From: Chrysomallon squamiferum
Lineage: Eukaryota; Animalia; Mollusca
Direction of reading: 5' to 3'
Assembly (NCBI GenBank): GCA_012295275.1
Contig: CM022665.1
Span: forward strand, 5,580,001-5,644,000
Length of the DNA stretch: 64,000 bases
The notes below the pieces were generated by a model. It saw only the letters and a program-made list of their open reading frames with translations, had not been told where the DNA came from and made no database searches. The translations under genes and the position numbers were made by a program. This document shows, piece by piece, positions 24,501 to 27,500 of the stretch (its first letter is position 1; each line of letters opens with the position of its first letter).

Positions 24501-27500
24501 GACATGTGGTTCCCTCTATATTAACAAACCTCACATACTCCAACAGCTGGTGAACAATATTAGGATCAATATCAGACCATTGGAGCCTAAAAACTAAGAG
24601 GTGTCACTAAAGAAAGGACACATTTGTAAAAAAAAAAAAAAAAAGAAGAAAAATGCCAACCATTTATGTGATGTGATTTTTCACACTTATTTCTTATATA
24701 CTGTGTATGATGCTTACATAGGAAATTAAAACTGTATATAGGAAATTAAAACCCCCACAGAAAATAAAGGATTTATTAACTGCTGAAACCTCTGCATGAT
24801 TCTGGCCCACAATGTACATGTGTCTGTGTATATTTGTCAAATTTGTTTGTTTTACCATTGCATTGTTGCTTTCAGTGTTAGTAAAACGGAACAAACCCAC
24901 AACAATTGTATTTATTGCATTATAATTGTTTTCATGCAAATAATGTATTGCCTTTAACGATTGTCTAAGTAATAACCGTTATAATATTTATTTAGACTGA
25001 CTAATAGATCATAGATTTTATATTTTTGCAATTGCAAATTCTTCGTATAAAAAAGATGCCTTTACTGTCAGTTTTGTTGTGAATTACTTAACACAAAGTT
25101 TATGCCTAGCACTGGTGTTAAATGTTACTACATTCATTAAGTGGTTTTGTTTTTCTTTAACAGTTGTAGAGTTTGTTTTCTGTAATCATCAAATGATAGA
25201 GTGCATCAGCAAATATTACAACTGAATGATTAATTCAGTTTACATGGGATGGGTTATTTTCTGATTTTAAAATGTAAACAGGAACTACAGGTAAAGTAGT
25301 ATTAAAAAGAATTATCTGTGCATCTTTAGGAATTTCTATCATTAATAATTAAGGCCTTATTCATTCAGAGCACAGGGCCCAGCATAGGCAATGTATTATT
25401 CATTATAAATAATTAAAAACATATTAGGATAAACTATATCAATGATATAAACATCTGATAGAAATATTTTAAAGTTTATATTATTTAAATGATGTTATGT
25501 TATTTTTGCTTGTGTTTTTTTTTAAAAAAAGAAAGGGGAATTGAAATGGCTTCTTTGAATTATTTTATGTTTGTTTTGCTCTGTGCTGTTGCTTATATCA
25601 TAAGTTAAAATGTACATGATAAGATTTTAAAATATTTATTAATTTAGTATAACTAGAGTTACTAACATCAGTTCCTTGGACATAACTAATAATCTGCATG
25701 CTTGCTGATGTGTGCCATCAAAGCATTAGCATGCTGTTTTTGGTAACAGGACAAACAACATTATTTCAACTTAGTATCAAACCATACATTTAGTAAAATT
25801 CCTGATTAATATAAAAGTGGGAACACTAAAAAGTATTCCAAACATAATCACAACGATGGTTATAAACTGAATAACTAAATATTTAAAACTATGAATTTCA
25901 TACAGTTTGACACTGTTTTTATTTTATATAGTTAAATTAATTCTATTTTATTTATTTATTTATTTATTTATTTATTTTATTTTATTTTATTTTATTTTAT
26001 TTTATTTTATTTTATTTTATTTTTTTTTATTTTTTTTTATTTTATTTATAATTTATTTTATTATTTTCCAAACATTCTAAGGAAAAAAATATAAATAATG
26101 AAAAAAAATAATAACTTTTCTAAACACGACTGCTTGGAATTGGTACGTTCCTTTTGAATAAACGTAATAATAAACAATCACCCCTTTGGAATTTGTCGAC
26201 CTTGACCTTACTTTTTGTAGGGAGTTTTGTTGGTTGGTCCTCCAGGTACGGGGAAAACGATGCTGGCCAAAGCCGTAGCAACTGAGTGTGGTACAACTTT
26301 CTTTAACGTCTCCTCATCCAGTCTCACATCAAAATATCGAGGCGAGTCCGAGAAATTAATGAGACTTCTGTTTGAAATGGTAAGGCCCACCGATAACCTG
26401 GGCAGGAATTGTTTAAATTTGCTTTTCAGGTAATTCACAGACAAGCTGCAGTACGGCATAATTTAATTGTTTAAAAAGTTGCATGCCCTTTGTTTCTTTC
26501 CCTGCCACTAGGGAGTGCTGATGGTTGGACCACCGGGTACAGGGAAAACGTTGCTAGCCAAGGCCTTGGCTACCGAGTGTGGAACAACATTTTTTTGCGT
26601 CTCGTCCTCGACTCTGACATCCAAGTATCATGGCGAGTCAGAAAAATTAGTGCGAATCCTTTTTGAGATGGTAGGTCTTCTGTGAAAAAAACCAACAAAA
26701 AAAACCCATCAAATTTAAATCCCACCTTTCACAATCACAACGATCATTTCAGCTTTCAGCTTGGTGCAGTTACAGAGGAATAGATTTTTGCTTCAGGTTT
26801 GAGAATCCTCGAAATTTGTTTTCTCATTATCACCAACTTTGCAAAAGCATTTAATTGTAACTTGAGGGTCTGTTCTTTTTTTTTTTTTTTTTTCATTTTC
26901 TTAATCTAACTGCATAATTTGTTTAAAACTTTTCACAACTCACAGCATTTTCCATAAATTCTCAGAACCATTGCTTTGCAAATTAAAAACCTATGATATT
27001 CTTCTAAGTATAATTTAAGCCCAATCTTATTAAGTTCATGTTTTCAAACTGTTGTTAAAAAACAAAGTAGTGAGCTGTGGAAAAGTTATTTGAGTTATAC
27101 CATGTCAACTCTATCAACTAAAATCTGCACCCTCTGATGTCATTGAAATTTTATAGGCATACAGAGTTCCATGTAGCATACAGCACAGTTTTCAAGATAC
27201 GTCATCAAAGTTGGACAAAAAACATCAAAAACATCATGCTTTGTTTTTGTAGAAATGCCAAAAGCTGGCACCATATTGAGCTAAACAGCATCATTTTACA
27301 TTTTTTAAACAAAATAACATTCTAATGGAAAAAGAAGTTCTAAGATCAAAATTGCCAAACTATATAATCTGTTGTGTCTGAACTGTGATAGAGTTGATGT
27401 AGAATGATATTTTTAAGTCATCATATAACCACTTTGATTTTTTTTTTTTTTTTTTAGATAAATTTCATCCAGTTTTGTTTTGGCTGTTGGTTTATGCAGA

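Follow-up and report, generated by a model that had tools for sequence, protein, structure and literature searches.

The 64,000-nt window of the Chrysomallon squamiferum genome analysed here (contig CM022665.1, positions 5,580,001 to 5,644,000) carries on its forward strand a katanin p60 gene with a coding region at 21549..30291. Two constitutive exons, an upstream one (23599..23704) and a downstream one that encodes Walker B and pore loop 2 (27952..28078), flank a tandem pair of alternative exons, A (26221..26379) and B (26512..26670), and RNA joints show the former as donor to A or B and the latter as acceptor from A or B. The other coding exons lie at 21549-21714, 22116-22309, 22623-22794, 23142-23248, 28603-28734, 29205-29331 and 30093-30291, and with either alternative the reading frame stays open between the second coding exon and the stop. 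RNA contigs run 29-110 letters before 21548, implying an upstream non-coding exon. The gene is preceded by a multi-exon EF-hand protein gene (~900-15480, forward strand; Pfam EF-hand in two exons) and stands tail to tail with a long terminal exon on the reverse strand (37050-38381) that encodes a RanBP-type zinc finger and a C-terminal RING (Pfam), an architecture that we take to resemble MDM2/MDM4.

The gene product is a katanin p60 of the KATNA1/KATNAL1 type, for which ATP-dependent microtubule severing is predicted. It has a single AAA domain with intact Walker A and B motifs and is placed among katanin p60 proteins; in a FastTree tree of 51 sequences, from which the alternative block had been taken out, it falls beside bivalve katanins, to which it is ~72% identical. 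The best match to exon A in the PDB is human KATNAL1 (E 7.7e-28), with 50 of 53 residues identical. The first coding exon is frameshifted in the window near 21600, and since the RNA of all four runs examined carries two extra letters there that restore the frame, this is most likely an assembly error and not the mark of a pseudogene.

Exons A and B each encode the block from Walker A to pore loop 1. The first-pass annotation described them as two intact 159-nt phase-0 exons, 132 nt apart, with canonical splice sites, and this is borne out: each spans 159 nt without a stop, begins and ends in phase 0 and is bounded by AG on its 5' side and GT on its 3' side, and the intron between them occupies 26380..26511. 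There is no third copy of the block within the 64-kb window. Over their 53 codons the two exons have 21 identical codons, 24 synonymous differences and 8 non-synonymous differences (pS 0.66, near saturation; pN 0.08), which indicates, as the annotation had also proposed from the many synonymous changes, an old duplication with both copies under purifying selection. Codon alignment reproduces exactly the eight residue differences that had been listed, L4M, M14L, V19L, N29C, S34T, R40H, M47V and L49I, and as the RNA contigs list no mismatching letters inside either exon, the species-specific residues are not assembly errors. The annotation saw in the pair a switch of the Walker A/pore-loop-1 module, of which only the second part stands. 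Walker A (GPPGTGKT) is the same in A and B, and the consistent switch is confined to pore loop 1, which reads KYRG in A, with the Arg codon CGA at 26338..26340 (exon position 40), and KYHG in B, with the aligned His codon CAT at 26629..26631. Among the eight differences R40H and L49I recur across species, while the others are not consistently common to them. V19L and N29C are found in one of 26 pairs compared, that of this species, which at eight differences is as divergent as any, level with Mya.

The splicing of the pair was followed in RNA contigs from four runs of a single study, aligned to 21500-28800; such contigs lose rare forms and give no usage ratio, and contig depth was not taken as usage. 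The upstream exon is joined to A (23704-26221) in all four runs and to B (23704-26512) in two, and the downstream exon is joined to A (26379-27952) in all four and to B (26670-27952) in three. Each exon accordingly has a junction that bridges the other (A-to-downstream in 4/4 runs, upstream-to-B in 2/4). A joint between A and B (26379-26512) was seen in none of the four runs, nor was a joint that skips both, at the level of contigs, from which rare joints could be lost. All four junctions anticipated by the first-pass annotation are therefore present, and the one expected to be absent was not seen. The two outcomes that it set against its own reading were an exon B never spliced in and not conserved, and routine co-inclusion; what was found instead is B joined in RNA and conserved across phyla, and no A-to-B joint in any run. 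In the one-read definition of Hatje et al. 2017 (PMC5740500), a mutually exclusive pair has junctions to the flanking exons and none between its members, which at contig level is the pattern of A and B; they also lie next to each other, share reading frame and canonical splice sites, and resemble each other in length and sequence, as that study asks of such a pair. Together with equal-length isoform pairs that differ only within the block in eight other species (below), the joints support mutually exclusive use, one exon per transcript, as had been proposed.

Unspliced contigs span the A-B intron in two of the four runs (X1 and X2), and X1 has no upstream-to-B joint yet holds such an A-intron-B contig. 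Retention of this intron would bring in a stop after 17 codons. The simplest reading is that these contigs are ordinary pre-mRNA, since other introns are also covered by contigs in the same runs.

How exclusivity is enforced is less plain. The A-B intron is the shortest of the gene's ten coding-region introns, and in this window as at the metagenomic loci described below it is shorter than each neighbouring intron wherever the neighbours could be located. Its length at nine metagenomic loci is 67, 52, 55, 214, 50, 56, 214, 111 and 53 nt, that is, 50-67 nt in six of the nine, which would place donor and branch point under the steric limit of <50 nt from donor to branch point given by Hatje et al. 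(PMC5740500). Given introns this short in several lineages, which fit steric interference as those authors describe it, exclusivity was probably steric originally; in C. squamiferum, where the nearest branch-point-like motif lies at nt 87 of the 132-nt intron, it would be enforced by some other means. Neither a steric, nor a frame-based, nor an RNA-structure mechanism fits the pair in this species. Co-inclusion and skipping of both exons each preserve the frame, so nonsense-mediated decay was rejected as the enforcing mechanism. RNA structure was rejected too, the folding of the intron with its flanks being matched by 182 of 200 shuffles (z = +1.25) and no docking/selector pair being identified among the best (longest) 25 of 740 inverted repeats, which are mostly low-complexity A/T runs. 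A candidate recursive splice site, an AG/GT at nt 50 of the intron, falls below the pyrimidine threshold and has no RNA joint to it.

The pair is not peculiar to this snail. A protein search with exon B returned 12 katanin hits that hold two copies of the block, nine of them Arg then His: Pinctada, Mytilus, two Tegillarca, Saccostrea, Mya, the annelid Lamellibrachia and two unnamed read-through frames. A bat model (P0011) was rejected as a vertebrate counterpart and treated as an artefact, its two copies being identical and both Arg; P0013 represents a fusion of two genes, and in P0014 the second copy is truncated. The bivalve and annelid models in GenBank/RefSeq that run both exons together (P0003, P0005, P0007-P0010, P0012, P0250, P0251 and P0360) are probably mis-annotated. 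Two Saccostrea models continue for ~1200 further, unrelated-looking residues.

Metagenome contigs scanned for the His motif gave 19 loci, nine with an Arg exon followed by a His exon (two of the nine near-identical); eight of these nine were in the tree, L002 being the one left out, and fall with annelid, unionid-bivalve and bryozoan references. A bryozoan-like locus, L001, has only a His exon between its flanking exons. At L005, L012 and L014 the upstream stretch is too short to reveal an Arg exon, and at L007 and L008 no introns flank the block. L010, L015 and L016 show the His motif, yet their identity is no more than 71-73%, over part of the block, and they were left out of the pair count; they contain a more distant katanin-like block with KYHG, possibly from another paralogue or from a lineage with an independent His. 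Protein cluster look-ups added equal-length Arg/His isoform pairs, differing only inside the block, in seven echinoderms and one bivalve (Asterias rubens, A. amurensis, Antedon, Anneissia, Strongylocentrotus purpuratus, Lytechinus pictus, L. variegatus and Sinanodonta). Arg comes first and His second wherever exon order is visible; the echinoderm pairs are isoform models in which it is not. Conservation of the KYHG exon across lophotrochozoans and other invertebrates, which the first-pass annotation put forward for checking, thus extends through molluscs, annelids and bryozoan-like loci and, beyond its guess, to echinoderms.

Other lineages show one version. The holothurian, Bugula and Brachionus models examined have His only, including both Brachionus paralogues. 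Only Arg was found in a sponge cluster (5 readable of 15 listed), Nematostella (2/2), six arthropod clusters (29 of the 32 listed being readable) and 27 other named proteins from arthropods, vertebrates and cnidarians, the two from Nematostella among them; for arthropods and vertebrates this rests on protein models, and the His-tuned search missed known His proteins, for example P0136 and P0171. A search of 50% representatives brought 128 new sequences, of which 124 are Arg, 2 His and 2 other, mostly unnamed single-exon fragments that add no taxa.

In every one of the 26 pairs position 40 has Arg then His, and it is the sole difference universal to them, a count that is partly ascertained, since nine loci were found by requiring the His codon and most isoform pairs were reached via His-type hits, and that includes close relatives that are not independent; the two-copy hits from the exon B search form a less biased subset. 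The next most frequent differences are at position 49 (14/26), positions 14 and 34 (10 each) and positions 39 and 3 (9 each), and several of the positions other than 40 swap both ways (at position 14, M>L in 4 pairs and L>M in 5). Counted from MEI-1 T240, W266 and E271, position 40 corresponds to R267 in pore loop 1 of C. elegans MEI-1, the four residues being placed as in 10.64898/2026.08.01.742241. Nucleotide differences over the 159 sites come to 40.1 for A-A, 41.0 for B-B and 44.2 for cross comparisons, near saturation and barely separating the classes. Methionine at position 3, on the other hand, is present in 17 of 81 His blocks, including echinoderm and Bugula ones, but in 0 of 173 Arg blocks. 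Its confinement to His blocks in echinoderms and Bugula alike favours a single origin, and the sequences make it very probable that the exon was duplicated once, arthropods and vertebrates later losing the His copy, and rotifers and one bryozoan-like locus the Arg copy. The duplication is, on this distribution, likely older than the protostome-deuterostome split.

The reference p60 of S. purpuratus (NP_999733.1, UniRef100_O61577) reads KYHG, and its X2 isoform KWRG. We take O61577 to be the p60 clone assayed by Hartman et al. 1998. According to a review (PMC8369831), it was in S. purpuratus that p60 homohexamers were first observed, and the sea-urchin protein forms hexamers and severs microtubules with no need of p80. 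The same source describes the pore-loop-1 X-R-G motif as a positively charged, tubulin-recognising surface, and in it and PMC6279391 positively charged pore loops engage the acidic tubulin tails and pore-loop mutations abolish severing while sparing the ATPase. X-R-G in this sense (PMC8369831) is present in exon A and absent from B; the reference p60 of sea urchin lacks it too, having His, so that it is no defining mark of the katanin family. The His form is in all likelihood an active severing enzyme, and an inactive or poison role appears unlikely given the sea-urchin reference sequence, the His-only locus L001 and the His-only models.

The explanation that we consider probable is that one of two tandem exons is spliced into each transcript to give an Arg or a His enzyme, that the duplication predates the protostome-deuterostome split, and that the His form is active with a different grip. 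One exon per transcript would yield monomers whose tail-contacting position holds either Arg or His, and a pore lined with His would be less positive, with an electrostatic grip on acidic tubulin tails that is weaker or pH-dependent. Histidine is mostly uncharged near neutral pH, and it is for this reason that such a change of grip may be expected of the B form. Were A and B forms co-expressed in one cell, mixed hexamers would be possible.

That both exons are instead routinely included together, as several GenBank models draw them (Pinctada, Mytilus, Tegillarca, Saccostrea, Mya and Lamellibrachia hold both copies), would keep the frame, but the lack of an A-to-B joint in all four runs, the modelling of eight other species as single-copy isoform pairs and the single copy in solved katanins leave this reading next to no probability. 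Nor do we give much weight to separate duplications in echinoderms and spiralians that converged on His. Exons can be duplicated in tandem repeatedly, and certain of them seem prone to it according to Hatje et al. (PMC5740500); exon order is not visible in the echinoderm models and the nucleotide signal is weak. Yet the same 53-residue block carries the same R>H change in both groups, with Met3 confined to His exons in each, and a convergence of this kind seems very improbable.

Equally improbable, in our estimate, is a role for exon B as an attenuator, supplying a weak subunit that dampens hexamers or mainly marking unproductive intron-retaining transcripts. Loss of the pore-loop Arg would reduce the positive charge of the pore (PMC8369831), and A-intron-B contigs with a stop in the retained intron do occur in two of four runs; against this, two of four runs join the upstream exon directly to B, the runs also contain contigs of other introns, which points to ordinary pre-mRNA, the p60 taken as reference in sea urchin has His, and His is the only version at L001 and in both Brachionus paralogues. 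Somewhat less remote, though still unlikely, is a pair that is exclusive and ancient but nearly equivalent biochemically, each exon being kept as the one spliced in some cell type. His-only models (rotifers, holothurians) and Arg-only models (arthropods, vertebrates) indicate that either residue can serve, and the spastin models examined have Val at the site (KYVG), so that change is tolerated within the clade. Near-equivalence, however, sits poorly with a position 40 that is always Arg then His (26/26) while other positions swap both ways, and among the 12 two-copy hits there is no diverged Arg/Arg or His/His pair. Because Arg versus His is the only universal difference, we favour a functional change of grip: a difference between A and B forms in the handling of tubulin tails or their glutamylation, kept by selection, is rather more probable than not on the comparative sequences. 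A bolder version is possible but doubtful. The bilaterian ancestor may have evolved a splice switch that sets katanin pore charge, with a His isoform that reads the tubulin code differently or is a pH-tuned severase (for example in eggs or ciliated cells) and mixed hexamers that grade the grip; classic sea-urchin biochemistry would then have been done on a pore chemistry unlike that of vertebrates and worm.

Mutually exclusive exons arising by tandem duplication are a known class, and the katanin pair resembles the examples of Hatje et al. 2017 (PMC5740500) in equal length, frame, similarity and joints to flanking exons only. It differs from that class in lying in an AAA+ severing ATPase and in being common to protostome and deuterostome lineages. 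Neither 'katanin' nor 'KATN' appears in the main text of that study (PMC5740500). Vertebrate katanin p60 (KATNA1/KATNAL1; PDB 5zql, 5zqm, 6b5c) and C. elegans MEI-1 (6ugd) belong to the same family and share X-R-G with exon A; the vertebrate and arthropod katanin sequences examined offer Arg only, whereas here one gene offers Arg or His by splicing. Closest are sea-urchin p60 (NP_999733.1 / O61577) and the echinoderm RefSeq X1/X2 pairs, with the same block and KYHG versus KWRG, the echinoderm Arg exon having Trp where that of this species has Tyr. RefSeq lists the katanin Arg/His pairs as automatic X1/X2 isoforms. We found no published description of the katanin exon pair, or of the reference urchin enzyme as the His form, in the full-text literature searched, outside which lie most subscription papers and supplements whose isoform tables could list the event; within that literature the pair is undescribed.

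The exclusive katanin exon pair is real and expressed, it is probably ancient, and a functional consequence is plausible. Its reach is limited, as the human, fly and other arthropod sequences examined show no His exon. It is an open question what adjusts severing enzymes to microtubules that bear different modifications, and pore loop 1 has been treated as a fixed X-R-G motif; here selection appears to retain two versions of one of its residues within a single gene in molluscs, annelids, bryozoans and echinoderms. This provides a natural Arg/His pair with which pore charge could be set against tail grip, glutamylation or pH response, and one that can be worked on in the sea urchin. It also makes the reference katanin of sea urchin one isoform of a pair, a point to be weighed when it is compared with the vertebrate and worm enzymes.
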